Assembly (NCBI GenBank): GCA_041652575.1
Contig: JBAZHC010000001.1
Location: 70,636-134,635 of the forward strand
Direction: 5' to 3'
Length of the DNA stretch: 64,000 nucleotides
DNA from: Phycisphaerae bacterium
GTDB taxonomy: Bacteria; Planctomycetota; Phycisphaerae; Sedimentisphaerales; UBA12454
The translations under genes and the position numbers were made by a program. Below the pieces are notes generated by a model. That model was not told where the DNA came from. It saw nothing but the letters and a program-made list of their open reading frames with translations, and did no database searches. Within the stretch, counting starts at the first letter, position 1. Each line of letters opens with the position of its first letter. Of this stretch, positions 49,357-64,000 are shown one piece after another.

Positions 49357-50172
49357 ATGACTAAAATACATCCAACAGCGGTAATTGAACCAAGTGCTCA
49401 GCTCGGCAAAGATGTTGTGGTTGGGCCGAATTGTTTTATCGATTCCGGAGCGCAAATAGGCGACGGCTGCATTTTTGACGCCAATGTAGTAATGGGCAAG
49501 AATGTAAAAGTCGGTAAGAAAAATATATTTTACGCAGGCAGTGTAATCGGAAGGAATCCGCAAATGCTCGGCGCCACTCCCGATACTCCTTTTGGCGCTC
49601 TTGAAATCGGCGATGAAAATCTGATCCGTGAATATGTTACGATACACCCGAGCATCTTCATGGATGCCGCTACAAAAGTCGGGAATAATAATATGTTTAT
49701 GGTCGGAGTACACATCGGCCACGACTGCATAGTCGAAAACAATACCGTCCTCAGCAATAATACACAGATAAGCGGACACTGCAAAATCGAAAACGGCGTC
49801 TGGCTCAGCGGCACAGTTCAAATTCATCAGTTCGTAACAGTAGGCAAATGGGCTTATGCGACGGCGCTGTCCGGACTCAATCACGATGTTCCTCCTTTTA
49901 TTACCGTAAGCGGCCATTACCCGCCGGAAGTCAGATTGGTAAACGAAAGAGGAATGATCCGAGCAGGCCTCAACGAAGAGCAGAAAAGAGCGATTTTAGA
50001 TGCCTTTAAGTTTTTGTATAAAAGCAAAACGCCGCTCCTTGAAAACGTCAAAACTCTTGCCGCAAAAGGCGGCCTCGATGAAAATGTGCAGGCAATGGTC
50101 GATTCTATCCTGAGAAGCAATGAGCACCGTTTCTGCAGACACCTTGAGTCGCTTAGAAGAAAAGGACATTAG
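49357..50172 (+). CDS. lpxA: Acyl-ACP--UDP-GlcNAc O-acyltransferase
   Basis: Contains MTKIHPTAVIEPSAQLG, hexapeptide repeats, and the LpxA C-terminal helical domain. Confidence 0.9.
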   Translation: MTKIHPTAVIEPSAQLGKDVVVGPNCFIDSGAQIGDGCIFDANVVMGKNVKVGKKNIFYAGSVIGRNPQMLGATPDTPFGALEIGDENLIREYVTIHPSIFMDAATKVGNNNMFMVGVHIGHDCIVENNTVLSNNTQISGHCKIENGVWLSGTVQIHQFVTVGKWAYATALSGLNHDVPPFITVSGHYPPEVRLVNERGMIRAGLNEEQKRAILDAFKFLYKSKTPLLENVKTLAAKGGLDENVQAMVDSILRSNEHRFCRHLESLRRKGH

Positions 50173-50178
50173 CTTCAG

Positions 50179-51183
50179 ATGGACAAAATCAGAACAGCCG
50201 TAGTCGGCGCAGGCAAAATGGGGCAAATTCACGCCAAGGTTCTCAGTAAACTGCCGCAAAGCAGTCTTGTCGCGATAGTCGATGTTCAGCAGGACAAGGC
50301 AAGGAAACTGGCCAAAGAATTTAAATGCGAATTTTTTACCGACCCCAAAGAAATCATCGGCAAAGTCGATGCTGTAACAATTTCCGCTCCGACCCAGAGC
50401 CATCTTGCTCTGGCCGAACTTTTCATAAGCAATCATATACCGGTACTCATCGAAAAACCTCTTGCCGCAAGCGCAGAGCAGGGCGAAAAAATCGTTTCAC
50501 TTTCTAAAGAATACGATACTGTCGTCGCTGTAGGCCATTCGGAAAGATGTAATCCGGTCGTGCAGGCGATGAAAAGGCTGAAAATCGAGCCGAAGTTTAT
50601 CGAAGCGACAAGAATCAGCCCGTATTCTTTCCGCTCGACGGATATCGGCGTTGTTCTCGATGTGATGATTCACGATATCGATATAATTCTCGCCCTTGCC
50701 CAAAGCCCCGTAAAAAAAGTCGATGCCTTCGGCGTAAATGTGATTGGAGATGCAGAGGATATTTGCAACTCGAGGATATTTTTCGAAAACGGCTGTGTCG
50801 CCAACGTTACCGCGTCGAGATTGGCACTGAAAACCGTAAGAAAAATTCGTGTCTTCAGCAGGCAGGCGTATTTAAGTCTCGATTTTTTCAAAAAAGAAGG
50901 CATCGTGATTAAAACGGACCCGAACGTTGACGCTGTAAAATGGGTCAAGGAAAAACAGGCTCTCGGCAATTTCGATTTCACAGGCGTAAACTGGCCCGAC
51001 CTGCTGCATATAGAAAATCTCAGTATAGATGATAAGGAGCCGCTTCGTCTCGAGCAGGAATCGTTTTTAAATGCCGTTGCCGATAAAAACAATCGTCCCG
51101 AAGTAACCGCTGAAGAAGGCTTGGCCGCCCTCAAATGTGCCGAGGCAATTCTAAAATCCGTCAAAGAGCACAAATGGGACTGA
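50179..51183 (+). CDS. Gfo/Idh/MocA-family NAD(P)-dependent oxidoreductase
   Basis: The N-terminal Rossmann motif is IRTAVVGAGKMGQIHAK, followed by EKPLA. Confidence 0.8.
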   Translation: MDKIRTAVVGAGKMGQIHAKVLSKLPQSSLVAIVDVQQDKARKLAKEFKCEFFTDPKEIIGKVDAVTISAPTQSHLALAELFISNHIPVLIEKPLAASAEQGEKIVSLSKEYDTVVAVGHSERCNPVVQAMKRLKIEPKFIEATRISPYSFRSTDIGVVLDVMIHDIDIILALAQSPVKKVDAFGVNVIGDAEDICNSRIFFENGCVANVTASRLALKTVRKIRVFSRQAYLSLDFFKKEGIVIKTDPNVDAVKWVKEKQALGNFDFTGVNWPDLLHIENLSIDDKEPLRLEQESFLNAVADKNNRPEVTAEEGLAALKCAEAILKSVKEHKWD

Positions 51184-51188
51184 TAATT

Positions 51189-52226
51189 TTATAGTTTGAA
51201 ATTCCTCGCTGTTTCCATAAATACCTGCATATTTTTCAACGGCGTTCCCGGCGGCAAATCGCAGCCTGTACTCAAAATAAAATTGGGATATTTCGCTGTT
51301 TTTTCCAATAAATCTTTTGTTGTCTCGGCGACCAGTTCCGGCGAGCCGTCTTTCATTATTTTTGTCGGATTGACATTTCCAATTACCACAACTTTTTGAG
51401 GTACTTTTTCAAGCATTTTTACAATGTTAACTCCTGTCTCCGGGGAATCTACACTCAATGCCCCAACGCCGCTTTTTACCATCCCGTCTATCAGGTGCAT
51501 TGTATTGCCGCATATATGATAAATCGTATCTACGCCGGCGTATCTATAGATTTGCAGGATGTGATTTACATATTGACCGCTGAATCGCTCGAATTGCTGC
51601 GGCCCCAAAATTACTCCCGTCGGTTCAAGAATGCATATCATATCCGCCCCTGCGTTTACAAGGGAACGCGCGTATTCGATAATTATCGATGTGCTGAATT
51701 TGCATAGTTCATCGAGTTTTTCAGGATCGAGTATCGAATCCATCGCGACCTGCTGAGCGCCCTCGAGCAAACCGGCCAGCGTAACCGGACCAATAACATA
51801 AGCGCCGACAAGAACATTATCAGGCAGACCGAGCTTCATCATTTCGATGGTTTTTATATACGACTGAATTCTCGCATCGTGCAGAATATTTATCCGCCGT
51901 AAATAATCGAGGTCGTCAACATTGTTAATCGGATGATGTTCGACTGTGCTCGATTCGTGAGTCGGGAAACGTACAGGCAGCCCGAGCGCGTTCGCCTCGA
52001 CAGAAAGGTCCATCATCATAAAGGCCGCATCCGGTTTTAGCTGGCTGACCAATGCCTCGATGCAGTTGTAATGCATACCGTAATTTTGCTGGGCGACTTT
52101 AATCGACATATTCAAAAGGTCGCAGCCCGGAAAACCGACCAGCGGCGCGGCAAGTCTTTTTTTCTCTGTATAAGCTTCAGCGGCAATCGCAGCGAGAGTT
52201 TTTCTTTTTATAAGCGAACTTATCAT
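51189..52226 (-). CDS. Uroporphyrinogen decarboxylase (URO-D) family protein, MtaA/CmuA-like
   Basis: 345 aa with a TIM-barrel URO-D-like pattern (...ILEPTG...HICGNT...). The specific function is unclear. Confidence 0.6.
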   Translation of the reverse strand: MISSLIKRKTLAAIAAEAYTEKKRLAAPLVGFPGCDLLNMSIKVAQQNYGMHYNCIEALVSQLKPDAAFMMMDLSVEANALGLPVRFPTHESSTVEHHPINNVDDLDYLRRINILHDARIQSYIKTIEMMKLGLPDNVLVGAYVIGPVTLAGLLEGAQQVAMDSILDPEKLDELCKFSTSIIIEYARSLVNAGADMICILEPTGVILGPQQFERFSGQYVNHILQIYRYAGVDTIYHICGNTMHLIDGMVKSGVGALSVDSPETGVNIVKMLEKVPQKVVVIGNVNPTKIMKDGSPELVAETTKDLLEKTAKYPNFILSTGCDLPPGTPLKNMQVFMETARNFKL

Positions 52227-52372
52227 ATTCTAATTCCTTAGGTAAAATCCGTTTAGAAATGCTTTACGTTATGTCTTAATTATATGAAATACGGAATCGG
52301 ATAGCTCAATCTATCGGTTTGATTTTTTGTACTATCCTGCTGTTTTCGCCTTTTTTTAACGAATAAACGAGT

Positions 52373-53047
52373 TTAAAAGCGTATTTTCAGCCTTGTTACG
52401 GTTTGATGTGCGACCCTGCTCGGCTCAGGCAAACGATACTTCCCGCAGCAATCAAGCACAATTCTTACAGCATCTTCGAGTCTGCATTTGAAACCCACGG
52501 AAACGAAAACCGGTTTTACATTATTGCGGGTTCTGACGACCGAGCCGATGATTTCATTTTTATCTTTGAGAGGACTTGTCGAACCTTTTGCCTCGGCGGG
52601 ATTTTCAAACTCGCCGATTAGTCTGCTTTTTGCGCAGCCTATTGTCGGAATGTCGAGAAAGAGGCCCAGATGGCTCGCAAGCCCTAATCTTCGCGGATGA
52701 GCTATTCCCTGACCGTCAACGATTATGCAGTCCGGAACGATTTTAAGTTTTTCAGCCGCCGCAAGACAAACCGGCGCTTCGCGAAACGATAACAGCCCGG
52801 GAATATATGGAAATGTTACCGGCAGTATCGAGTATGCCGCTTCGATAATCTCGAAAGTTCCGGCCGATAAAACAATTATGCAGGCGGCGATATTTTTTTT
52901 ATCTTTTGTAAAACCGCAATCTACGCCGGCGATGGTTTTTATTTTTTTGTTGAATTTGCATGGGACGATTTGCCCGGCAAGGCTTTTTTGAAGCTCAATC
53001 GCCTTTTTGACGCTTATGTCCCAATTGTGTAAGTTCTTTATCTTCAT
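52373..53047 (-). CDS. nfi: Endonuclease V (deoxyinosine 3' endonuclease)
   Basis: Contains IAGVDCGF, FPYIPGLLSFREAP, VDGQGIAHPRRLGLASHLG and IGCAKS. The start was placed at MKIKNLHNW (53047). Confidence 0.9.
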   Translation of the reverse strand: MKIKNLHNWDISVKKAIELQKSLAGQIVPCKFNKKIKTIAGVDCGFTKDKKNIAACIIVLSAGTFEIIEAAYSILPVTFPYIPGLLSFREAPVCLAAAEKLKIVPDCIIVDGQGIAHPRRLGLASHLGLFLDIPTIGCAKSRLIGEFENPAEAKGSTSPLKDKNEIIGSVVRTRNNVKPVFVSVGFKCRLEDAVRIVLDCCGKYRLPEPSRVAHQTVTRLKIRF

Positions 53048-53169
53048 TAGTTTATGGTTTCGCCCGGATAAATGTATTTTACTTATTGAATGGTTTTGGT
53101 ACAATAGCCAAATTGGTTTATTGCCTTTTTTCTCAAGGCGGATACCAACAGTAAGCAAAAGGGAAAATA

Positions 53170-56025
53170 ATGCAGAAATCTATAAAAGTTGTCGGGGCTT
53201 GCCAGCACAATCTTAAGAATATAAGTGTCGAGGTTCCTCGCGATAAATTTGTCGTTATTACCGGCATCAGCGGCTCCGGAAAAAGTTCGCTTGCGTTCGA
53301 TACGATATACGCCGAAGGTCAGCGAAAATATGTCGAGTCTTTAAGCGCCTACGCCCGTCAGTTTCTCGAACAGATGCAAAAACCTGATGTTGAGTACATC
53401 GAAGGTCTCCCCCCGACAATCGCGATTGAGCAGAGAAGCGCCGCCAGCAATCCCCGTTCGACCGTTGCCACGACAACCGAGATTTACGATTACTGCAGGG
53501 TTCTCTTCGCAAGGGCAGGCACGCCGCACTGCTGGATTTGCGGAAAAGAAATCGCCAGCCAGCATTCGACGCAAATTGTTGACAGCATAATGTCGCTGCC
53601 GCAGGAAACTAAGGTGCAGATTTGCGCTCCGCTTATCCGCGGCCAGAAAGGCGAGCACAAGGAAATCTTCATAGGGATTCAAAGCGAAGGTTTCGTGCGT
53701 GTCCGCGTTGACGGAATTATTTACGACGTAAAGAGTGTTCCAAGGCTGGACAAAAACAAAAAGCACGATATTGCCGCTGTTATCGACAGGCTTATTATAA
53801 AAGATACGGTACGAATTCGTCTTGCGGATTCTGTTGAAGCTGCGCTGAAGATTGGCGAAGGCCTGATATTTGTAATGGTTCAGGAGCCCAGCGACGGCAA
53901 ACAAAACGGGGGCTCCGGAGGGTGGCGCGACCTTGTATTCAGCGAAAAATTCGCCTGCAACGAGCATCCTGAAGCATCTCTCGAGGAACTTTCGCCGAGA
54001 CTTTTCAGTTTTAACAGTCCTTACGGCGCCTGCGGAAGCTGCGATGGCCTTGGAACGATACTCGAATTTGACGAAGACCTGATTGTGCCGGACAGAAATC
54101 TTTCCCTTGAAAACGGGGCAATCGACGCCTGGCGCAAGGGCGGCAAGAGAATGAATATTTTCTACAGCAGATTGATAATGAAATTCTGCAGAGATTTCGA
54201 AATAAGCAAACAGACGCCTTTTTTAAAGATACCTACTGACATAAAAAAAATTCTTATGCACGGTACTACGGAAGAAGACGAAAAAAAATTCGGGACATAT
54301 TTTGAAGGAGTTATGCCGAATCTTGACAAGAGATGGAAAAATACTTCCAGCGAGTATGTCAAGGCCCGGCTCCACAGCTATCTTTCCGAGCAGCCGTGCA
54401 GAACCTGCAACGGCGCAAGACTCCGCAAAGAGGCCGTCGCTGTCACCATAGGCGATAAAAACATAAACGAAATTGCCCGGATGAGCGTTGAAGAATCGCA
54501 GAAATTTTTTAGCGAGCTTAAATACGAAGGCGAAAAAGCCCTTATCGCCGTCCAGCCGCTAAAGGAAATAAAAGCAAGATTGAAATTTCTTGTCGACGTT
54601 GGCCTGGGTTATATTACTCTTGACCGCAGAAGCGGAACATTAAGCGGCGGAGAGGCCCAGCGTATAAGACTTGCCACGCAGGTCGGCAGCGGACTTGTCG
54701 GCTGCTGTTATGTCCTCGACGAACCGACCATCGGCCTGCACAGACGCGATAACGACAGGCTGCTCGGCATATTAAGAAAACTGACTGACATAGGAAATAC
54801 AGTTCTTGTTGTCGAACACGATGAAGATGTTATCAAAAGCGCCGATTATGTAATTGATATCGGTCCGGCTGCCGGCGACCACGGCGGAGAACTTATCGCG
54901 CAGGGGTCTGTAAAGGATATATGTGCGGCTCCGCGTTCCATGACAGGCGATTATCTTTCCGGCAGAAAAAAAATCGAACTGCCCGCAAGAAGACGAAAAG
55001 TCAGGATGAATCACTGCATTGAAATCAAAGGTGCCTGCGAAAATAATCTGAAAAATATCGACGTTAAATTTCCCCTCGGCGTTTTTACCTGTGTTACAGG
55101 CGTTTCAGGCTCGGGCAAAAGTACGCTCGTTACTGAAATTCTCCTGAAAGGACTTTGGAGAAAATTATATTACTCCGGCGCCAAACCCGGCAAACACAAA
55201 AACATCCTTGGCACAAGTCAGATTGACAAGGTTATAGAAATCGACCAGTCGCCGATTGGCAAAACCCCTCGAAGCAATCCCGTTACCTACACTGGCGTAT
55301 TCGACCTTATAAGGCAGTTATTTGCCAAGACCCGTGAAGCTCGAATCAGAGGCTATAGCGCCGGCAGGTTCAGTTTTAATATCAAAGGCGGCAGATGCGA
55401 ACACTGCCAGGGCCAGGGCACCAAAAAAATAGAGATGCACTTTTTGCCGGACGTTTATGTTATCTGTCAGCAGTGTAAGGGCAGTAAATACAATCCTGAA
55501 ACGCTTCAGATTACATATAAAGGCAAATCGATTGCCGATGTTCTCGATATGCGGATTGAGGAGTCGCTGAAGTTTTTCGCGAATTTCCCGAAGGTTGTTC
55601 GGCTGCTCAAAACCTTAAGCGACGTCGGCCTCGGTTATATGCAGCTTGGTCAATCCTCGACGACTCTTTCCGGCGGCGAAGCGCAGCGAGTCAAACTTGC
55701 CGCCGAGCTCGGCAAAACTTCGACAGGTCATACGTTATATCTTCTCGATGAGCCGACAACCGGTCTGCACTTTGCCGATATTCATAATTTGCTGAACGTG
55801 CTGCAGAGATTATGCGACCTCGGCAATACCGTAATTGTAATTGAGCACAATCTCGATGTTATAAAACTGGCTGATTATATTATTGACCTTGGCCCCGAAG
55901 GCGGCCAGGCCGGCGGAAATGTTATCGCCACCGGCTCGCCAGAGGAAATTCTGAAATTCAAAATGAGCCATACTGCCGAATATCTCAGACAATATCTCAA
56001 TAACCGGCAGAAAAAGGACCAATAG
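53170..56025 (+). CDS. uvrA: Excinuclease ABC subunit A
   Basis: 951 aa with two ABC modules ([12 protein letters not shown] and [10 protein letters not shown]), zinc-finger cysteines, and two copies of LSGGEAQR. Confidence 0.97.
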
Positions 56026-57089
56026 TGAAAACATTTACGACGCTTCAATGGACCGGCGATATCAATGGCTGTCTCGAACTGACGGACCAGCGAAAACTTC
56101 CCGCAGAATTTATCACGATACAATGCAAAACCACGGAACAATTATTTAACGCGATAAAAACCCTTGCCGTCAGGGGAGCCCCTGCAATCGGAGTTGCCGC
56201 CGGTTTTGGTATTTGCCTTGCGGCACAGCAGACAGAAAATTTAAAACTTTCAGACGCGGTAAAATATATTGAAGAGCAGGCTGATTTTCTTTCGAAATCG
56301 AGACCGACCGCGGTAAATCTATTTTGGGCCCTTGAAAGAATGAAAAAAACAGTCTGTGATTTCGCCGAAAAAAATCCAAACGCTGAAATTGATGATATGA
56401 GAAAATGCTTATTGAGCCAGGCGCAGAAGATTTACGATGAAGATGTAGAAATGTGCCGCAGGATAGGTCTCAATGGCGAAAAATTTATACCTGCCGGCGG
56501 AGCGATTCTGACGCATTGTAACGCCGGCGCTCTTGCCACGGCAGGCGATGGTACGGCAATTGCGCCGATATTTGAGGCGCAGAGAAAAGGAAAAAAATTT
56601 AAAGTCTATGCCGATGAGACAAGACCGCTTCTGCAGGGCGCAAGACTAACGGCATGGGAACTTAAACAGGCCGGCATCGATGTTACACTTATCTGCGACA
56701 ATATGGCGGGGACGTTAATGAAGGATGGAAAAATAAATGCCGTAATTGTCGGCGCAGACCGGATAACGGCCAATGGCGATACCGCAAATAAAATCGGAAC
56801 TTATTCTTTAAGTGTTCTCGCCAAAACGCACAATATACCGTTTTATGTCGCTGCGCCGTCAAGCACCTTCGATTTAAAATCGAAAAACGGCAGTCAAATC
56901 CCGATTGAGCAGAGAGAGCCTGACGAAGTGCTTAAGTTTATGGATGTTCAGATTGCACCTGCGGGCGTAAATGTGTATAATCCTGCTTTTGACGTAACGC
57001 CCGCGGAAAATATCACGGCGATAATTACTGAAAAAGGTGTTGTCCAGTGGCCGACAGAAGAAAAAATCCGAAAAATGCTAAGCCTTTAA
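56025..57089 (+). CDS. mtnA: S-methyl-5-thioribose-1-phosphate isomerase
   Basis: eIF-2B alpha/beta/delta-like fold with VRGAPAIGVAA, HCNAGALAT, ADETRP.LQGARLTAWEL and GADRI.ANGD.ANKIGTY. Confidence 0.9.
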   Translation: MKTFTTLQWTGDINGCLELTDQRKLPAEFITIQCKTTEQLFNAIKTLAVRGAPAIGVAAGFGICLAAQQTENLKLSDAVKYIEEQADFLSKSRPTAVNLFWALERMKKTVCDFAEKNPNAEIDDMRKCLLSQAQKIYDEDVEMCRRIGLNGEKFIPAGGAILTHCNAGALATAGDGTAIAPIFEAQRKGKKFKVYADETRPLLQGARLTAWELKQAGIDVTLICDNMAGTLMKDGKINAVIVGADRITANGDTANKIGTYSLSVLAKTHNIPFYVAAPSSTFDLKSKNGSQIPIEQREPDEVLKFMDVQIAPAGVNVYNPAFDVTPAENITAIITEKGVVQWPTEEKIRKMLSL

Positions 57090-58846
57090 AGCAACCTCTT
57101 TCTCCCCAGCTTCTATTGCAGACAGCGGCAAGGGAAAAACGCGTCGATATTTTTTTGTTCCTGCTGCTGCTCTGTTTCGGTCTTTATCAGGCCATTCTGT
57201 ATTGGGGACATCAGGCTGTGCCGCATTTCGATTCATATTGTTTTCCTTTTGTAGGTCATAAAATACTGAGCTTTGAGCTTCCTGAAGATTTCAAAAGAAC
57301 GCCTCTTGTCGGGATATTGCAGATATGGCTTGGAAAAATATCCGGCGGACAATGTCCGGACTTTACCGGCGGCTGGCTTTTGAATTCAATTTCTCATATT
57401 TTAACCGTTATCTTTTTGTGGCTGGCGGCGAAAAGAGTCATCGGCCGAAACGCCGTCTGGTTTGCGGTTATCGCCATTATTAATCCGTTCGGCCTGCAGT
57501 TATTGACCGAAGCCATCGCCGAAACTCCGATGCTGTTTTTTATCTGGATTACGCTTTATTTAATTTTTATCAGGTCGAAATGGACCTATCTTTTCGCCTC
57601 GCTTGCGACAATGGTGCGTTATGAATGTGCCGCACTCATAGCGGGCATGTTTGTTTTGGAAATGATTGAAGGTAAAAATAAAAAAGAGCGGCTGATGGCT
57701 TTTGGTTATGCCGCCGCCGCTTCGATACCGCTTGCTGTTTGGATGCTCGGAACTTTTCTTAGCAGCAATCTCGGCGCCACTCACTATCTTAATATATTTA
57801 AAAAGGATTATACCTCGCAGTTTGTCGAGGGCGTCCAGAACAGAACAGGCTTTTTAATGCATGCCAACATTCTATGGCAGGTCGGTTTCCTCCCGCTCTT
57901 TCAGCCTTCTCCTGCGGCAGGCGGAACTCTTGCTAAAGGGCTTTTAATTGCCAACCAGGTTATTACGGTTATCACTTTCCTGTTCGGTACTGTTTACGGT
58001 CTTTATAAAAAACAGTGGAACATACTCGTACTGCTTATCTTCCTTCTGCCGTATTTCTGGATTCATTCCAAATACCCTTATCCGATTCACAGGTATCACG
58101 CGACTATTTTCGCGATGGTTATGCTTATATGTATTTACGGTATTATCAGTTTCTGGAAACTGGTAAAAGACAAACTGCCGAAACCGGCCGTAATCGCGTC
58201 GCAGCTTCTCGTTTCGGTAATAGCGATTATCTGGATTATGATTTTATGGGGTTATCTGCCGCGAATAGCGCCGATGAGCAAGGTAAGCGTTTCTCTCCCG
58301 TACATCGCGATACTGGCGGCCTTTATGGTTTTTGCCGTCGAAAGTTTCGCTTACAAAACAAAGCTGATTACTAATTTGGTCGTTCTGATATTAATGATTC
58401 TTATGATTGTTTCCAACCAGTTTGTCGTGGCGCAGGTTGTCGGCAACGGCGAAAGAGATTTGGAATTTAAATATCTTGCCGAATGGTACCGCCAGAACGC
58501 AAAGCCCGGCGAAAAGCTCGTTACTACCGTTCCGGTTATTCTTGAGATTCTTGCCCCGCAGTACAAAGACGATTTTATTCATACCAATACGTTTGATGCC
58601 AATAATCCCAATGATTTCGTAATGGAATGCTACAAAAGAAATATTACTTATGTCGCCTGGGATTCGAGAGAAGGCCTTAACCCCACCGACCATTATTACA
58701 AATACTGGAAAATGTCAAACATCGCACCTCTTGCCGTCGGCCGTGATATCGGCCCTTATCAGTTCATCACGCAATTAAGAGTCAATCAGCGGAGATATAT
58801 TAATCTCTACCGTCTAAGACCTCTGTCTGAAGTGATGCAAAAATAA
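57047..58846 (+). CDS. Polytopic membrane protein, possibly a GT-C-type glycosyltransferase
   Basis: About 12 or more hydrophobic segments are followed by a ~130-aa soluble tail. No catalytic motif was verified. The GTG start overlaps the mtnA end. Confidence 0.5.
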   Translation: MADRRKNPKNAKPLKQPLSPQLLLQTAAREKRVDIFLFLLLLCFGLYQAILYWGHQAVPHFDSYCFPFVGHKILSFELPEDFKRTPLVGILQIWLGKISGGQCPDFTGGWLLNSISHILTVIFLWLAAKRVIGRNAVWFAVIAIINPFGLQLLTEAIAETPMLFFIWITLYLIFIRSKWTYLFASLATMVRYECAALIAGMFVLEMIEGKNKKERLMAFGYAAAASIPLAVWMLGTFLSSNLGATHYLNIFKKDYTSQFVEGVQNRTGFLMHANILWQVGFLPLFQPSPAAGGTLAKGLLIANQVITVITFLFGTVYGLYKKQWNILVLLIFLLPYFWIHSKYPYPIHRYHATIFAMVMLICIYGIISFWKLVKDKLPKPAVIASQLLVSVIAIIWIMILWGYLPRIAPMSKVSVSLPYIAILAAFMVFAVESFAYKTKLITNLVVLILMILMIVSNQFVVAQVVGNGERDLEFKYLAEWYRQNAKPGEKLVTTVPVILEILAPQYKDDFIHTNTFDANNPNDFVMECYKRNITYVAWDSREGLNPTDHYYKYWKMSNIAPLAVGRDIGPYQFITQLRVNQRRYINLYRLRPLSEVMQK

Positions 58847-58894
58847 ATGTCATTTCGACCGGAGTGAAGCGCAGCGGAGAAATCTATTTAAATT

Positions 58895-60223
58895 TTATAA
58901 TTTCTTATTTTTATAATTATTCCACCAATTCTGCCATGCCGCTTTATCAGTGCGATAAGTTCGCGTTAATGGCATCTTCACACCTGTAAGTTTTTCAAGA
59001 GCCTTATTTATAGCACCGGCTCCGCCCTCTGATTCTTTATCTATAACATCTATAAGAACAGGCACATCTTGTAAATTACCGCATACTGCCAGCGAATAGG
59101 CCAAATTGGGGCCATAGCCGCAGTCTGCATATTTTAGTTCCTTCAGCAGGGTTATCGTTTGTTCTCTTGCGCCAAGCGGCCCCAACATTTCTGCCCAGAA
59201 ATATACATCATGCACCATTTTCATTGGGTCTTTTTTAATTTTTCTGATTTCTTCAACAAGTCTGTCCGCCAATTCATTACGGAGTTTTTGTTTGTCAGGC
59301 AAATCCATTGTTTTCCATATAAACCACGCACACGCAAGACGACAACCATCAGGCCCATCCGGAGTACTTCTGTCAAGGACGTGAGGTATTAACTGCTCTG
59401 GCGCTAAATCAGCAAAACGCGTATCTGTCGGCGGTTCAGTTGGATTAGGATACGGACAATTTCTTGCCTTTGTCTTTTCTTCTTTATTCTGCCCGGCAGA
59501 ATCAAAAGAAGGCACTATTGCAGCTTTAAAGGTAGTTTTGTCAACCATCACATACGACACTTTGCCGAGGTAATTTCGCCACGTTGTATTTTCTACGATA
59601 TAATATTTTTCTCCTTCATAAATAATACTCATACCCCCTTTGATAATCTCCGATGCAGCTTTGATTATTTTGTCGTACCTTTCATTCTGATTAGGGTCTT
59701 TGGAATCAGGGTGTAATCGGTTTAATTTTTCATAAGGGCTTACCGGGCTTCTCTGTTCCTGGCCGATGATAACAGGCAGGTTGTTCGAATCCTCCAGTTG
59801 AAAATTAAATACTCTTCCTTTAAGATAAGGAAACGGCGTCTTCTTAAGCATAATTTTGGATTCGGGGGCAGGATAAGTATCGTAACAAATAAAGTTAAGT
59901 TCTTTATTGTTCCACCGGCCAACGGTATTTTTTATGATTCCGCATTTTATAAGATACCAGGATTTCTCCCAGTCGCCCTCTGTGGCAGTTGCGTACTCCT
60001 GCATATCCGCGACATATACCAGAAACTCTATATCGGCTTGTCCGTCTTTAGGCGCCAGGTCAAATGGTATGGGTTTATTTTTCGGCAGATAAGCGTTCAC
60101 CGCCTCCGGCGGCGCGGGAATATTGCTGTCAGTGGGAATATCTTTTGCAAAGACGAAAGCGGAAGTCAGAATTATTAAAATAAAAATCGCCGAAAGTTCT
60201 GAATGCTTATTTTTCATTTTCAC
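58895..60223 (-). CDS. Hypothetical secreted protein
   Basis: 442-aa ORF with an N-terminal signal-like segment (SAIFILIILTSAFVFA). Composition is AT-rich and no family was recognised. Confidence 0.55.
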   Translation of the reverse strand: MKMKNKHSELSAIFILIILTSAFVFAKDIPTDSNIPAPPEAVNAYLPKNKPIPFDLAPKDGQADIEFLVYVADMQEYATATEGDWEKSWYLIKCGIIKNTVGRWNNKELNFICYDTYPAPESKIMLKKTPFPYLKGRVFNFQLEDSNNLPVIIGQEQRSPVSPYEKLNRLHPDSKDPNQNERYDKIIKAASEIIKGGMSIIYEGEKYYIVENTTWRNYLGKVSYVMVDKTTFKAAIVPSFDSAGQNKEEKTKARNCPYPNPTEPPTDTRFADLAPEQLIPHVLDRSTPDGPDGCRLACAWFIWKTMDLPDKQKLRNELADRLVEEIRKIKKDPMKMVHDVYFWAEMLGPLGAREQTITLLKELKYADCGYGPNLAYSLAVCGNLQDVPVLIDVIDKESEGGAGAINKALEKLTGVKMPLTRTYRTDKAAWQNWWNNYKNKKL

Positions 60224-60256
60224 TCCCTCTGAGACCGATGGCTATAAGTACTTATT

Positions 60257-61015
60257 TTATACGGTCTTGAAGATATTGAATTTGGCCAGTTGGAGTTTTT
60301 GAAGAACAAACTGCAGCATTGTGAAAAGCGTCAGCAGACCGTATCTTGTACTACGTGAAAAATTAATGCTCGACGCCTCTTTGAAATATCTGCACGGCAC
60401 GGGGGCATCGGCGATTTTAAATCCGAAATACGCCGCCTGCGCCAGCATTTGCGAATCGAACACAAAATCGTCCGAATTTTTATGATATGGTATTTTTTCC
60501 AGTACCGCTCGTTTATAAACTCTGAATCCGCTGTGGAAGTCGCCCAGGTTCTGGCCCAGTATAAAGTTTTCGGTAATAGTCAGCATTCTGTTCGCTAAAT
60601 ATTTATATACCGGCATACCTGAACTTATCGTTTCAGCTCTTGTGCGGATTCTGCTGCCGAGCATAAAATCGCAAACGCCGGTCTGCAAAAAGCCGATGAA
60701 ATACGGAATCAACCTGCCATCGTATTGGTAATCGGGATGAAGCATCACGACAATATCGGCTCCTTTTTTCAGTGCCGCGTCATAGCAGGTTTTTTGATTT
60801 GCGCCGTAGCCCCCGTTTTTTTCTCGTCGAATTACCGTCAGCCCAAGCCTCTCTGCAATCTCAACCGTATTGTCCTTGCTGCAGTCGTCCACCAGAATAA
60901 TATCTTTGCGGAATTGTTCCGGAATATCGTTGACAGTATTCTCCACCGTAGAGCCCGCGTTATACGCAGGCATAACTATTATAGTTTTGGGCGGATTGTT
61001 AGCGTTTGTATCCAA
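60257..61015 (-). CDS. GT2 glycosyltransferase, polyprenyl-phosphate sugar synthase-like (Dpm1/ArnC type)
   Basis: Contains [10 protein letters not shown]...[11 protein letters not shown]...GYGANQ and a C-terminal hydrophobic segment. Confidence 0.8.
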
Positions 61016-61030
61016 TGAAAAGCCGACTCC

Positions 61031-61291
61031 TCATTTTACCGCGACAACTTCCTTAACCTCCGGAACACGCTGCTTCAAAAGCCGCTCAACCCCCATCTTC
61101 AACGTCATGGCCGCGCCAGGACAACCCTTGCAGGCACCCTGAAGCCGAACCTTAACCGTATTGTCAGAGGTAAGTTCCACAAATTCTATATCGCCGCCGT
61201 CATTCTGCAACATCGGCCTAATGCCGTCAATTACTTCTATCACCTTGTCATTTATGGACTTATCGCCATGGCAACCGCAATTTTCACACAT
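61031..61291 (-). CDS. NifU-like C-terminal-domain Fe-S scaffold/carrier protein
   Basis: Contains DGGDIEFVE...VRLQGACKGCPGAAMTLK. Confidence 0.85.
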   Translation of the reverse strand: MCENCGCHGDKSINDKVIEVIDGIRPMLQNDGGDIEFVELTSDNTVKVRLQGACKGCPGAAMTLKMGVERLLKQRVPEVKEVVAVK

Positions 61292-61607
61292 TTTACAACT
61301 CCTGATAAATAATAAATTTAGAGCGGAAATTATATCAACATCTTAAAATTTCTCCACTTATTTTACGTTAATACGAAAACAATGGGGCAAAAAACAATCG
61401 TAAGTCCTTATTTTTCAAAAACAAATAAAGGAGTTATGAAAAAAAGTTCGTCAAAAACGCGCAAGTTTTTTTTATTTTCGCGCAAGTTGACTAAAAAAGG
61501 GCCACAGATTTCACTGATTTTGTACAGATTTTATATGAAAAAGTCAAAAAAGTGAGGAGTTTTTACAGGTTTTGGGCAGTTTTTGGGGTTTTTGGAACAT
61601 TTTTTTT

Positions 61608-61630
61608 AGCCACTAAGCCACTAAGACGAA
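61608..61630. repeat. Family A half-element (agccactaagccactaagacgaa)
   Basis: It has the same CCAC-TAAG periodic arm as in the pilus locus, followed by the family's usual aaaaaatatttaaaaa loop. The right arm is degenerate. Confidence 0.55.
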
Positions 61631-61651
61631 AAAAATATTTAAAAATTTTGT

Positions 61652-61679
61652 TTGACTAAATAAAAAAACACGATAAACT
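61652..61679 (+). promoter_or_regulatory. Candidate sigma70 promoter of the E2/E1/JAB operon (TTGACT, 16-nt spacer, TAAACT)
   Basis: TTGACT lies at 61652-61657 and TAAACT at 61674-61679, about 45 nt upstream of the first ATG. The aaggag RBS is at 61712-61717. Confidence 0.45.
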
Positions 61680-61701
61680 GCACAATCGTATTAATTGTAC
61701 A
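61679..61701. promoter_or_regulatory. Candidate operator: inverted repeat tgcacaat-N7-attgtaca
   Basis: The 8-bp arms are complementary at 7 of 8 positions. The repeat abuts the putative -10 box. Confidence 0.35.
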
Positions 61702-61723
61702 TATTTAACTTAAGGAGCAAGAT

Positions 61724-61939
61724 ATGGCCAAAAAACCGACAATTGAAGAATTGGAAGCTATTTTAGATAAGGAAGAAGAAACGCCAATCGAAATACTTCC
61801 GAATGGCGAAATCCGTGCAAAAGGCCAGACAAATTCAAGTGAATTGGCCGGAAAAAAACCACTAACAATGCGTGAAAATCTTGGCGGCGAATATTCTTTT
61901 AATAGGTTTAGATATGGACATTATACGTATTCAAAATGA
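61724..61939 (+). CDS. 71-aa protein with an internal Leu-Gly-Gly (residues 53-55); candidate modifier or substrate of the adjacent conjugation enzymes
   Basis: A strong RBS (aaggag) with 6-nt spacing, and first position in the operon. It has ...TMRENLGG followed by a 16-aa tail. It overlaps the next gene's ATG by 26 nt. Confidence 0.55.
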   Translation: MAKKPTIEELEAILDKEEETPIEILPNGEIRAKGQTNSSELAGKKPLTMRENLGGEYSFNRFRYGHYTYSK

Positions 61940-62291
61940 GTTCAAAGAAGCTCAGGAATATTTCTCATATATTGAGTTGCATCCAACATCTGATGGAAAG
62001 CTTTATGTAAAAAGCGCAATTCAATCTTCTTTTACTAATTATTATATTTTAAAAATTGTTTTTCCGGATAGTTACCCATATTCGATGCCAAGTGTTTATA
62101 TTGAAAAACCAGTGATAAATTCTTCGCCTCATCGTTATATGGAAGGAAATATTTGTTATTTACATCCGACTATGTGGAATCCGGGAATTCATAATCTTTC
62201 ATTTGTGCTTCAGCGTGCTGCTAAATGGTTAGCTAAATACGAGGTTTGGAAGAATAGCAATAAATGGCCGGGAGCACAAATTGTACATTAA
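61914..62291 (+). CDS. UBC/E2-like protein 1
   Basis: N-terminal helix RIQNEFKE, then FPDSYPYSMPSVYI, then HRYMEGNICYL...WNP. This parallels the E2 layout FP..YP...P, HPN-loop, catalytic Cys, W.P. Confidence 0.75.
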   Translation: MDIIRIQNEFKEAQEYFSYIELHPTSDGKLYVKSAIQSSFTNYYILKIVFPDSYPYSMPSVYIEKPVINSSPHRYMEGNICYLHPTMWNPGIHNLSFVLQRAAKWLAKYEVWKNSNKWPGAQIVH

Positions 62292-62302
62292 AGGAAATTT
62301 TT

Positions 62303-62824
62303 ATGCATTTAGATTTTAATACCTTATCTATGATGAAATTAAGAAGTTCTCCGGGGGAGGCTCTCGATAAAGTATCTAAAGAAGGCAAGGCCTTTATTAT
62401 CGAAAGAAATGGTCACCAAGAAGCCTGCCTGGTTCCTGTTTGGTATTTTTTGCCTGATATTCCAAAAGATAGAATTAGTAATGAGTTAGAAATATTACAC
62501 CAAAAAGGAGAAAAACCTTCATTAAGGTTTTCTGATAATCATGAATTGGAAATCTTGTTTAAAGAATGTTTAATGAATTATGAAATAACAATTAGAATTG
62601 TTCTTCCTCATGGATATCCAAACAACGTCCCGAAAATCTATGCTTCGCCTATTAGAAAAGATGCACCCCACTTATGGCATGATGGTGCTTTATGCATTTT
62701 TGGAATTATGGCTACTTGGAATCCTGGTAAACACAATATCGGTACTGTATTAGACCTAAGTCGAAAATGGCTTTCGAAATATAGCGAATGGGAAAAAAAT
62801 GAAATTTGGCCAGTTGAAGGTTGA
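62303..62824 (+). CDS. Phd/YefM-like N-terminal domain fused to UBC/E2-like domain 2
   Basis: The N-terminal LRSSPGEALDKVSKEGKAFIIERNGHQEACLVPVWYF is antitoxin-like. The C-terminal LPHGYPNNVPKIYA...HLWHDGALCIF...WNPGKHN is paralogous to E2-like 1. The aaaggaaa RBS precedes the ATG at 62303. Confidence 0.75.
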   Translation: MHLDFNTLSMMKLRSSPGEALDKVSKEGKAFIIERNGHQEACLVPVWYFLPDIPKDRISNELEILHQKGEKPSLRFSDNHELEILFKECLMNYEITIRIVLPHGYPNNVPKIYASPIRKDAPHLWHDGALCIFGIMATWNPGKHNIGTVLDLSRKWLSKYSEWEKNEIWPVEG

Positions 62825-62832
62825 AATAAAAA

Positions 62833-63678
62833 ATGAACGAAGAAAAAACATTTACACGAATAGAAAAATTATTTGATATTGGATTACTTAATAATAGCAG
62901 AATTCTTATTGTTGGGTGTGGTTCAGGTGGCGGTAATCTGGCTTTACAATTAGCTATGTCTGGTATCAAAAATTTTACACTAGTAGACAAGGATGTACTT
63001 GAGATAGAAAATGTCATTAGGCATGTTTGTGGAAGAAAATTTATAGGCAAAAGGAAAGTTGATGCACTTGAGGAAGTTTTATTAGACAGAAATCCTGAGA
63101 TTAAAATAAGGAAGTTCGACGTAGATATAATGAACTTTGACCTTCTTGAATCTGAAATAAAAGCTCATACTTTAGTCGTTTTGGCTACCGACAATGAACC
63201 TTCTCGCTATTTAATTAACGATATTTGTGTGCATAATAATATTCCATTTGTAGTTGGACGAGTATTTACTCGTGGTATTGGTGGAGAAGTTTTTATTTAT
63301 CGCCCCAAAATAGGCGGTTGTTTAGCATGTTTAGAAAGTTTTCTGGGAAGAACCAAATATCGTCAGGGGATAAGAGAAATAGATTTGGTATCGGAGAAAG
63401 AAAGGGAACAAATGTATGGCATGGAAATAGCTGAAATAAAAGATTCCCCTGGCCTTAATGTTGATATATCTTTTATTACGGCCTTTCATACAAGATTTGC
63501 ACTTGACGCAATTGCTGAGACATTAAAAGTACGTCCTAAATATATGCAAGCTATTCCTGATAATTATATTATATGGGGGAATAGGCCAACGCCTCCTTTT
63601 ACAAAACATTTTCAAATTCAACGCTTTAACCTGCCACCACAGGAAGGATGCCAAATATGTTCGCAAGAAAAAAAATAA
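62833..63678 (+). CDS. ThiF/MoeB-type E1-like adenylating enzyme
   Basis: Contains ILIVGCGSGGGNLA, LVDKD, NVIRH and LATDN, plus the paired CxxC motifs CLAC and CQIC. Confidence 0.85.
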   Translation: MNEEKTFTRIEKLFDIGLLNNSRILIVGCGSGGGNLALQLAMSGIKNFTLVDKDVLEIENVIRHVCGRKFIGKRKVDALEEVLLDRNPEIKIRKFDVDIMNFDLLESEIKAHTLVVLATDNEPSRYLINDICVHNNIPFVVGRVFTRGIGGEVFIYRPKIGGCLACLESFLGRTKYRQGIREIDLVSEKEREQMYGMEIAEIKDSPGLNVDISFITAFHTRFALDAIAETLKVRPKYMQAIPDNYIIWGNRPTPPFTKHFQIQRFNLPPQEGCQICSQEKK

Positions 63679-64000
63679 ATAAGATTCCAGTTCAAATTTG
63701 TATTTGCAAAGATGTATTAAATTCGATTTTCGACGAATGCGATAAAAATGATATTGATGAAACTGGTGGTCGTATAATTGGATATTATAATCAAAATAGA
63801 AATAAATTAAATATCAATGTTTGTGGTTTAATTGCTTCTGGTCCAAATGCAAAAAGTTCACCAACGAGTTTTTTTCAAGATGGGATTTACCAAGAAAGTA
63901 TCTTTAGAAAATTAGAAGAAGAATATCCTAACATTGAACATCTTGGAAATTGGCATACGCATCATGTAAATGGTTTGCAAACCTTAAGCGGAGGAGATAT
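63657..64000 (+). CDS. JAMM/JAB (MPN+) metalloprotease, 3' end outside the window
   Basis: Hand translation gives MFARKKINKIPVQICI...DETGGRIIGYY...HLGNWHTHHVNGLQTLSGGD, which carries the E...HxH...SxxD metal site. It overlaps the E1 stop by 22 nt. It is absent from the ORF track because it has no stop in the window. Confidence 0.8.
   Translation, partial: MFARKKINKIPVQICICKDVLNSIFDECDKNDIDETGGRIIGYYNQNRNKLNINVCGLIASGPNAKSSPTSFFQDGIYQESIFRKLEEEYPNIEHLGNWHTHHVNGLQTLSGGD

Follow-up and report, generated by a model that had tools for sequence, protein, structure and literature searches.

A widespread, mobile E2-E2-E1-JAB cassette with a small Gly-Gly protein as candidate modifier, found at the end of a Phycisphaerae genome window

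Relation to described conjugation systems

Several described bacterial systems use homologs of the ubiquitin-activating (E1) and ubiquitin-conjugating (E2) enzymes together with JAB-type proteases, and of these 6A-MBL is the nearest relative of the locus reported here. 6A-MBL corresponds to row 6a in Table 1 of Iyer, Burroughs & Aravind 2006 and has been named as a validated defense system of P. aeruginosa (PMC13276650; 10.1101/2025.09.30.679545). Our locus lies at the 3' end of a 64,000-nucleotide stretch of contig JBAZHC010000001.1 from a Phycisphaerae bacterium (assembly GCA_041652575.1), referred to below as the window. It starts with a gene for a small protein containing a Gly-Gly motif (g1), followed by genes for two E2 homologs (E2a and E2b), an E1 homolog, and a JAB/JAMM metalloprotease (JAB) that is cut by the window edge. 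A horizontally mobile cassette of about seven genes begins here, with its 5' part inside the window, and we are all but certain that this cassette is real and conserved. Its arrangement is not a matter of chance, as about 80 genomes share this gene order. From sequence comparison, we consider evenly poised the reading that the cassette is a ubiquitin-like protein-conjugation system, most probably one that acts in defense against phages or other mobile genetic elements.

The likeness to 6A-MBL is considerable. Both combine E2, E1, and JAB activities with an adjacent metallo-beta-lactamase (MBL)-fold hydrolase, both are sporadic and mobile, and a patatin is sometimes attached. However, 6A-MBL carries E2, E1, and JAB in a single polypeptide (cap2_3), whereas the cassette uses four genes encoding an E2, a Phd-E2 fusion, an E1, and a JAB with an extra domain. 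In addition, the MBL of the cassette is ComEC-like and unlike the 6A-MBL enzyme family, and the small Gly-Gly protein that forms part of the cassette has no counterpart listed for 6A-MBL in Iyer 2006 or NCBIfam. The NCBIfam models for 6A-MBL have cut-offs of 320 bits (NF058523, cap2_3) and 220 bits (NF058524, 6A-MBL_enzyme). With NF058523 the E1 of the cassette scores 53.5 bits and its JAB 44 bits, and with NF058524 its MBL scores 40.5 bits (compared with 91 bits for ComEC_Rec2), while the 6A-MBL neighbors of the cassette in loci L052 and L054, which served as controls, score 585 and 349 bits with the first model and 391 and 283 bits with the second. Canonical 6A-MBL genes that pass these cut-offs stand beside the cassette in 17 loci (e.g., L052 10737-14071 and L054 10626-15211), and since genuine pairs adjoin it in this way, the two must be regarded as distinct systems. 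The proposal that the cassette is simply 6A-MBL was rejected by the NCBIfam scores and by this co-occurrence. In some of the 17 loci, a patatin part is added to the 6A-MBL triple fusion, giving an E2-E1-JAB-patatin protein of 1138 aa. The preliminary description of the window had suggested that sequence further downstream might assign the locus to a class already described. The MBL gene found there does link it to the 6A-MBL/type II CBASS lineage, but the different architecture, the scores far below the cut-offs, and the adjoining bona fide pairs keep it out of the 6A-MBL class.

Similarity to the type II cyclic oligonucleotide-based antiphage signaling system (CBASS) is seen in the E2s, which belong to the E2-CBASS family (PF26395), and in the JAB, which is related to the Cap3 type. 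The effector repertoire of patatin, transmembrane (TM) protein, and nuclease also resembles that of CBASS. Unlike in type II CBASS, the E1 stands alone and is nearer to MccB, MoeB, and ThiF than to Cap2, there is no Cap2-type E2-E1 fusion and no cyclic-nucleotide sensor, and a dedicated small protein with a Gly-Gly tail takes the place of the enzyme C-terminus. No CD-NTase (cGAS/DncV-like nucleotidyltransferase) occurs among the cassette genes or among the listed families of downstream and flanking genes, and the sole PADLOC 'Cyclase' match involves the E2-like C-terminal part of a single model. Bil systems, in turn, resemble the cassette in encoding modifier, E2, JAB, and E1 as separate genes, and they share with the scheme proposed for it a modifier precursor that is matured by the JAB and the use of conjugation against viruses. 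The modifier BilA is a ubiquitin-like protein (Ubl) with a beta-grasp fold and one to three domains, the E1 BilD is composed of several domains (IAD-AAD-CYS), and the E2 BilB is of the diverged CEHH type. In contrast, the candidate modifier of the cassette has 55 residues and no beta-grasp, the E1 is a single-domain protein of 281 aa, and MBL, patatin, or TM effectors are present. Searches of Pfam, the PDB, and Foldseek, the last with a moderately confident AlphaFold 2 (AF2) model, found no gene for a beta-grasp Ubl in the cassette. The preliminary description had placed the locus outside both CBASS and Bil, and this holds: a CD-NTase and a beta-grasp Ubl are lacking, and the E1 is encoded apart from an E2 that occurs twice.

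In Bub systems the modifier gene is directly 5' of the E2 gene or fused to it, the JAB cuts after a conserved Gly, and the E1 crossover loop contains an invariant Tyr and no Cys (PMC11601596). The candidate modifier gene of the cassette is likewise beside, or fused to, an E2 gene, and its E1 is Cys-less in the same region with a conserved Y195. However, Bub relies on a beta-grasp Ubl, a Ser-type E2, and the serine protease BubE, whereas E2a of the cassette has an invariant Cys and no DUF6527/BubE gene is present in the cassette. For the E1 alone, the best match in both sequence and structure is MccB, which acts on MccA in the microcin C7 pathway. The MccB-MccA and PaaA pathways function without an E2 or a JAB and yield a small-molecule antibiotic, and the peptide clamp of MccB is missing from the cassette E1. 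MccB nonetheless provides an analogy, as in its case an enzyme of this E1 lineage activates a peptide C-terminus although the peptide has no beta-grasp fold. Small, largely disordered modifiers with a C-terminal GG-x motif are also known in Pup and UBact, which are ligated through a Glu side chain by PafA-type, glutamine-synthetase-like enzymes and not by an E1/E2 cascade; no sequence similarity between them and the small protein was noticed, though no search was aimed at it. In the literature searched, which lacked several subscription papers, nothing on the present architecture was found outside Iyer 2006 and the publications on 6A-MBL, CBASS, Bil, and Bub.

A conserved small protein and its partner enzymes

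No part of the system is as conserved, or as unusual, as the small protein. It had been recorded in the preliminary description as a 71-aa open reading frame (ORF) with an internal LGG, from which nothing more was drawn, and the LGG is indeed present at residues 53-55 of 71. A total of 712 homologs were collected at 90% clustering (594 clusters at 50% identity), and no Pfam domain was found in any of them. The conserved core of 57 residues has the consensus ...P[TS]I.ELE..L..EE..I[EQ]ILPNGE[IV]R...KKPLTM[RK]E[DN]LGGEY, in which L53, G54, G55, E56, and Y57 are invariant in 47/47 aligned homologs and in 77 distinct copies from cassette loci. Directly after Y57, 22 of these 77 copies stop, and the others continue into unrelated tails of 1 to ~16 aa, with one tail far longer. 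Most of the 150 database matches listed similarly have the module close to, or at, their C-terminal end, and few of them have a long extension past GGEY. The gene is immediately 5' of the E2 gene in 74/77 loci, and in one protein (P0367, L099 495-1055) the two are fused in frame as ...LGGEY-VP-MDLDRL..., which parallels the Ubl-E2 fusion BubAB of Bub that is cut by its JAB after Gly (PMC11601596). When the window copy was compared with 71 others, 1728 of the 2832 differing codons were synonymous, which points to purifying selection on the encoded protein. A chance ORF was considered and rejected by the conservation and by the ratio of synonymous to non-synonymous differences.

The AF2 model of the small protein, built from a 47-sequence alignment (predicted local distance difference test score, pLDDT, 67.7), starts with a helix that leads into a beta-hairpin and a second, short helix, and its tail is disordered. 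No PDB sequence match was found for the protein and no Foldseek fold match for the model, and from the model, the length, and the lack of matches, the protein is not predicted to be a beta-grasp fold. It does look like the precursor of a ubiquitin-like modifier, with a conserved body that runs into a flexible LGG tail and ends in a dispensable extension. The tail has the form expected of such modifiers, with Gly-Gly followed by EY and a further 0 to ~16 aa (far more in one case) or by a fused E2. It is possible that the invariant EY is a P1'/P2' determinant for the JAB. On balance, we would give the small protein roughly an even chance of being a conjugated tag.

The identification of the second gene product as an E2 in the preliminary description is well supported. 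E2a matches PADLOC E2 models (2e-12) and, below the Pfam cut-off, UQ_con (6e-5), and both it and E2b have a precomputed Pfam match to PF26395 (E2-CBASS). The E2a family profile finds eukaryotic ubiquitin-conjugating (UBC) proteins in the PDB, the best of which is UBE2W (4.5e-5), and the PHRY..GxIC motif of E2a aligns on PHVY..GHIC of UBE2W with Cys81 at the position of the catalytic Cys. In 79 sequences, H73, C81, W88-N89-P90, H93, and the C-terminal H125 are at least 98% conserved, and by this conservation E2a is likely a catalytic conjugating enzyme. The last residue, H125, is invariant and preceded by a conserved WPG motif; a conserved terminal residue of this kind is unusual.

E2b had been described as a second E2 with an antitoxin-like domain, and this was borne out by both halves of the protein. 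Its N-terminus is Phd/YefM-like, with PhdYeFM_antitox (PF02604) matched by 10/10 family members (best 2.6e-8), although the similarity is limited to the N-terminal half of that profile. The remainder is related to the E2a family by hhalign (99.6% probability, 28% identity) and matches the PADLOC E2 model at 5e-8. The claim that both E2s keep the candidate catalytic Cys is correct for the window and for the E2a family, but not for E2b as a family, where, among 76 sequences, the position of Cys131 is occupied by Cys in 55 but by Ser in 18, Ala in 2, and Gln in 1. The E2b gene is also absent from L048, L081, L085, and L088, loci that are otherwise complete. Because the Cys is replaced in 21/76 copies and the gene is absent in four loci, E2b looks accessory, and it is probably a partner similar to the ubiquitin E2 variants (UEVs) and not an obligatory catalyst. 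RefSeq labels the Phd-E2 fusion as 'type II toxin-antitoxin system Phd/YefM family antitoxin' (WP_258600242.1, L098 5353-5883, NZ_CP080523.1), and through this systematic mis-annotation the E2 domain goes unnoticed.

The E1 was correctly assigned as a stand-alone protein of the ThiF type (ThiF 7e-37). Its Rossmann fold starts from about residue 19, and conserved features include GCGSGG (G28-G33), R63, D120, two CxxC pairs, and two further invariant Cys in the Rossmann core, C66 and C132. The AF2 model (pLDDT 80.6) has MccB as its best PDB fold match, followed by MoeB, UBA5, and ThiF, and Cap2 is not in the top 50 matches; in the PDB sequence profile search, MccB was likewise found at 7e-20 versus 3e-8 for Cap2. 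The region from C166 to about residue 270 is free of Cys and contains conserved R173, R177, E182, D184, Y195, and EIKDSPGL, with a loop at 196-202 that is disordered in the model. A crossover region, at residues ~167-210, that is Cys-less and has an invariant Tyr195 recalls the Bub E1, though E2a retains its Cys.

For the region past the window edge, sequence was taken from an identical 5.2-kb public contig (L001). The full-length JAB has 314 aa, including a C-terminal domain of ~150 aa that lies outside the window. As stated in the preliminary description, the fifth gene encodes a JAMM protease truncated by the window edge (PADLOC JAB 1.4e-14; Prok-JAB 2.5e-4), and its E...HxH...S..D zinc site is intact, with E35, H100, H102, S111, and D114 at least 98% conserved. 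A profile search with the C-terminal domain gave nothing in Pfam or the PDB, and hhalign shows no relation of this domain to the E2s or the small protein. Directly 3' of the JAB gene is a gene for a 277-aa MBL-fold protein (L001 3060-3893), which scores best with the family of the ComEC/Rec2 C-terminal domain (91 bits), and its six PDB matches are without exception ComEC/Rec2 or competence-protein chains (best E = 7.6e-17). It has a reduced metal site (D62, D64, H65, H146, D177, H203, and H204) and an unconserved C-terminus. The ComEC/Rec2 C-terminal domain is described as a nuclease (e.g., PMC12455585), and by analogy the MBL is likely a DNase. The MBL gene is followed by genes for a membrane-anchored PG_binding_1 protein and a 233-aa protein with four TM segments and weak similarity to DUF2207_C. 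That no effector is visible is therefore right for the window itself, as had been noted, but not for the locus, as effector-like genes are found just past the edge. At one locus (L030 8846-10699), JAB and MBL are fused in a single 617-aa ORF, which hints at physical cooperation of the MBL with the JAB or with the C-terminal domain of the latter.

Distribution, neighborhood, and anatomy of the locus

The distribution of the cassette was surveyed by a scan with the E1, using one genome per species, which gave 80 loci with 54-82% E1 identity. Components were counted in 82 loci with hidden Markov models built from four seed loci, and the denominators given here are the loci that could be assessed. 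E2a is present in all 77 (77/77), E2b, the small protein, and the MBL each in 74/77, and the JAB in 79/80, the exception being the JAB-MBL fusion at L030. A patatin is encoded within a few kb in 42/68. Of the three loci without a small protein, one has a disrupted 5' end, and the other two have no motif and a truncated E2a. The MBL is missing from the cassettes of L002/L003 and L048. Otherwise, the order small-E2a-E2b-E1-JAB-MBL is constant across loci. The genes that follow are variable, with patatin in 36 loci, the canonical 6A-MBL pair in 17, the family of the 233-aa TM protein of the window locus in 10, and several unknown families in others. In the MBL-less Planctomycetes locus L002 (3892-6753), and also in L003, a 953-aa protein is encoded co-directionally just 5' of the small gene. 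It consists of an N-terminal HNH-like endonuclease region and a novel STAND NTPase and may be an alternative effector or sensor partner.

Hosts of the cassette belong to more than 15 phyla. They include Planctomycetota, Omnitrophota, Elusimicrobiota, Acidobacteriota, Verrucomicrobiota, Myxococcota, Nitrospirales, Gemmatimonadota, Binatia, Armatimonadota, Alpha-, Gamma-, and Deltaproteobacteria, and a Methanosarcinales metagenome-assembled genome (MAG); a copy from Campbellbacteria, a member of the candidate phyla radiation (CPR), was found separately from the scan. More than 1500 relatives of the E1 are present in the database, and the best 120 are all stand-alone proteins of 278-301 aa with 66-82% identity, few of which have source names, these being from unrelated phyla. 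The Methanosarcinales archaeon MAG (L010, JAIWAR010000002.1) has a complete cassette on a 70-kb contig with 77% E1 identity to the window copy, which reflects either inter-domain transfer or a binning error. Cultured hosts are Bradyrhizobium genosp. A strain BDV5028, for which the genome is complete, and Mesorhizobium sp. AR10, in which the cassette is on plasmid pMspAR10a. The plasmid copy is annotated in RefSeq without a system name, and its genes are labeled in order as hypothetical, 'ubiquitin-conjugating enzyme E2', 'Phd/YefM family antitoxin', ThiF, hypothetical, hypothetical, and patatin, so that JAB and MBL are both 'hypothetical'. Copies are found on a rhizobial megaplasmid and beside integrases, TraG, and MobA. 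Depending on the locus, the flanks contain integrases, type I, II, and IIG restriction-modification (RM) genes, DISARM, Hma, Dsr2, AbiEi, BrxH, STAND/HNH, or housekeeping genes.

In the window itself, the five ORFs are tightly packed in one direction (Table 1). The 26-nt overlap of g1 and g2, the gaps of 11 nt between g2 and g3 and 8 nt between g3 and g4, and the 22-nt overlap of g4 and g5 agree with the preliminary description. The GC content is 0.33-0.37 in the cassette region (61000-64000) versus 0.45-0.47 in the flank (50000-61000), and the drop falls exactly at the cassette. The 5' flank is made up of housekeeping genes (uvrA, mtnA, a glycosyltransferase gene, and a NifU-like gene), with no tRNA gene within 24 kb upstream of the cassette and no integrase seen in the 8 kb of upstream sequence inspected. 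An AT-rich intergenic leader of 430 bp precedes g1. It contains short direct repeats (61458-61488 and 61553-61592), namely two copies of CGCGCAAGTT placed 21 nt apart and a 20-nt imperfect tandem. Repeat analysis gave nothing informative on them; they could serve as operators to which, e.g., the Phd-like domain of E2b binds.

Table 1. Coordinates of cassette genes, key codons, and leader signals in the window
Feature	Position	Strand	Basis or remark
Candidate sigma-70-like promoter, TTGACT-16-TAAACT, ~45 nt 5' of g1	61652-61679	+	Consensus scan, 9/12 positions, weak
Shine-Dalgarno sequence AAGGAG, 7 nt before the g1 ATG	61711-61716	+	Read from sequence
g1, small protein, 71 aa, candidate modifier precursor	61724-61939	+	57-residue conserved core and 14-residue variable tail
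Codons for LGGEY (residues 53-57), proposed processing/activation site	61880-61894	+	Invariance
g2, E2a, 125 aa, N-terminus MDIIRIQ	61914-62291	+	UBC-fold E2 by profiles
TGT codon of E2a Cys81, predicted thioester site	62154-62156	+	At least 98% conserved; aligns with the UBE2W catalytic Cys
Last codon of E2a, His125	62286-62288	+	Invariant C-terminal residue
g3, E2b, 173 aa	62303-62824	+	Phd/YefM-like domain at ~7-46; E2 paralog at ~56-173
E2b Cys131 codon	62693-62695	+	Aligns with the E2a Cys position; variable in the family
g4, E1, 281 aa, single-domain ThiF/MoeB/MccB-type adenylating enzyme	62833-63678	+	ThiF 7e-37
g5, JAB/JAMM metalloprotease, first 114 codons inside the window	63657-64000 (window end)	+	PADLOC JAB 1.4e-14

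Proposed function and competing explanations

Several clues bear on what the cassette is for. Its components are homologous to the CBASS E2, E1-E2, and JAB models of PADLOC, and canonical 6A-MBL is immediately downstream in 17 loci. Genes for RM, DISARM, Hma, Dsr2, AbiE, and STAND proteins and for integrases are found nearby. The distribution over more than 15 phyla at 54-82% E1 identity is patchy, as with horizontal gene transfer, the GC content is anomalous, and JAB copies are borne by phages. The latter are stand-alone proteins of ~170 aa with 50-74% mutual identity that are close to the JAB domain of the cassette and have intact motifs. They were found at L091 7001-7513, at L092 6001-6510, and in the viral contigs L093-L097, and those of L091 and L092 adjoin terminase and portal genes. 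No other cassette genes are present in the phage JAB loci, the E1 had no match in IMG/VR, and the window JAB fragment had none in GenBank phages. A homolog search with the 114-aa JAB fragment returned short proteins only; of two that were inspected, one was a frameshifted cassette fragment (L090) and the other a real stand-alone phage JAB. As a hypothesis, the phage JABs may be captured anti-defense isopeptidases. Because of the family homology, the adjacency to 6A-MBL and other defense genes, the patchy distribution, the anomalous GC content, and the phage JABs, a role of the cassette in defense appears quite likely.

Each biochemical step of the mechanism we propose is inferred, and the data behind it cover gene content, conservation, catalytic motifs, mobility, and context. 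The small protein would be made as a precursor and cut by the JAMM protease between LGG and EY, either removing EY and the tail or freeing the tag from the E2 fusion, with Gly55 exposed as a result. The MccB/MoeB-like E1 would then adenylate the C-terminal Gly55, and the acyl group would be passed to Cys81 of E2a, perhaps directly from the adenylate since the E1 crossover region has no Cys. From there, E2a would move the 55-residue tag onto a target amine with E2b assisting as a UEV-like adaptor, and the JAB may also reverse conjugation. The MBL and the variable partner, which is a patatin phospholipase in many genomes and the four-TM protein at the window locus, would act as killing or clearing effectors with an activity that is coupled to the conjugation state.

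A number of points weigh against this scheme. There is no obvious catalytic Cys in the crossover region of the E1, unlike in canonical thioester-forming E1s. The invariance of E56 and Y57 after the Gly-Gly is unusual for a tail that is discarded; Tyr57 could instead be the functional C-terminus, or the motif could serve some other purpose. The fusion of the small protein to E2a was seen on a single 1.1-kb contig and is possibly an assembly artifact, and the view that the small protein is not a beta-grasp leans on an AF2 model that is only moderately confident (pLDDT 67.7). As for defense, the upstream flank in the window is of a housekeeping nature and not a defense island, and the flanks at other loci are mixed. 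Neither PADLOC (2023) nor NCBIfam (2026) recognizes the cassette, which fits novelty but equally means that it has been validated by no one.

Other explanations can be formulated with the same genes. The E1 and E2s may conjugate the C-terminus of the MBL or the patatin in a priming reaction similar to that of CBASS, where Cap2 acts in this way on the CD-NTase, and to what has been proposed for 6A-MBL. The small protein would then not be the tag and would serve as a pseudo-substrate, a competitive inhibitor, or a regulator. The E2 and JAB families are nearest to those of CBASS, the MBL is almost always present and is fused to the JAB at one locus, and type II CBASS, Pycsar, and MBL pathways are stated to conjugate their own signaling enzymes (PMC11601596). 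Nevertheless, we judge such priming unlikely, as the unconserved C-terminus of the MBL makes it a poor candidate for the conjugated end, cassettes without an MBL exist (L002/L003 and L048), and the only invariant Gly-Gly tail of the system belongs to the small protein, which is as universal as the enzymes. Alternatively, tagging may control nuclease and phospholipase toxins in a selfish addiction or regulatory module that stabilizes a mobile element or serves another stress response, in which case the Phd-like domain of E2b would be a DNA-binding autoregulator of the antitoxin type. The presence of this domain in 10/10 E2b proteins tested, the rhizobial megaplasmid copy, the integrase, TraG, and MobA neighbors, and the toxic nature of the effector enzymes would all agree with such a module. 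It is rather unlikely all the same, since no cognate toxin of the Doc/YoeB type is present and the Phd match spans only half of the profile, while co-location with defense genes and 6A-MBL and the phage JABs fit defense better.

Two further explanations concern the small protein more directly. It may be a protease-gated pro-peptide or sensor in which LGGEY is cut by the JAB or a phage protease, thereby freeing or inactivating an inhibitor of the effector, while E1 and E2 act elsewhere. Cleavage is implied by the variable tails and internal LGGEY positions, phages carry related JABs, and proteolytic activation of CBASS by phage proteases is reported (PMC12991175). This arrangement would leave a strictly co-inherited E1 and E2a without a substrate, however, and an LGG tail beside an adenylating enzyme is most simply the substrate of that enzyme, which makes the pro-peptide improbable. 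Finally, an MccB-like E1 might make an adenylated, microcin C-like toxin from the small peptide as in the biosynthesis of ribosomally synthesized and post-translationally modified peptides (RiPPs) or peptidyl-nucleotides, with the JAB processing the precursor. MccB is the best match of the E1 in sequence and fold, and the AF2 model presents the candidate substrate as a short peptide that is not a beta-grasp. But the E1 lacks the N-terminal peptide-clamp domain of MccB, its Rossmann fold starting from about residue 19, no exporter or immunity genes recur, and neither an E2 with an invariant Cys nor its UEV-like paralog would have a role in such a pathway. As substrates of the MccA type moreover end in Asn and not in GG(EY), toxin biosynthesis is highly improbable.

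We thus return to conjugation of the small protein as the explanation to be preferred. To our knowledge, all modifiers of E1/E2 cascades described so far are beta-grasp proteins or, in CBASS, an enzyme tail. That the 55-residue LGG protein is a genuine modifier of such a cascade without a beta-grasp fold, and that the pathway is a widespread form of prokaryotic immunity, is tentative and somewhat short of probable. If true, it would be the first 'mini-ubiquitin' of this kind that we know of, present in bacteria and at least one archaeal MAG. The conjugation state would control a ComEC-type nuclease, patatins, and membrane effectors, and phages would counter the system with captured JABs. A widespread defense system would be added that is so far not annotated as defense, and it is small enough for reconstitution, with the phage JAB as a ready-made candidate for the counter-measure. 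A compact tag without a beta-grasp that is served by an MccB/MoeB-like E1, a canonical Cys E2, a UEV-like partner, and a JAMM protease would also widen the definition of ubiquitin-like conjugation and would inform ideas about the evolution of the ubiquitin system from peptide-adenylating enzymes.

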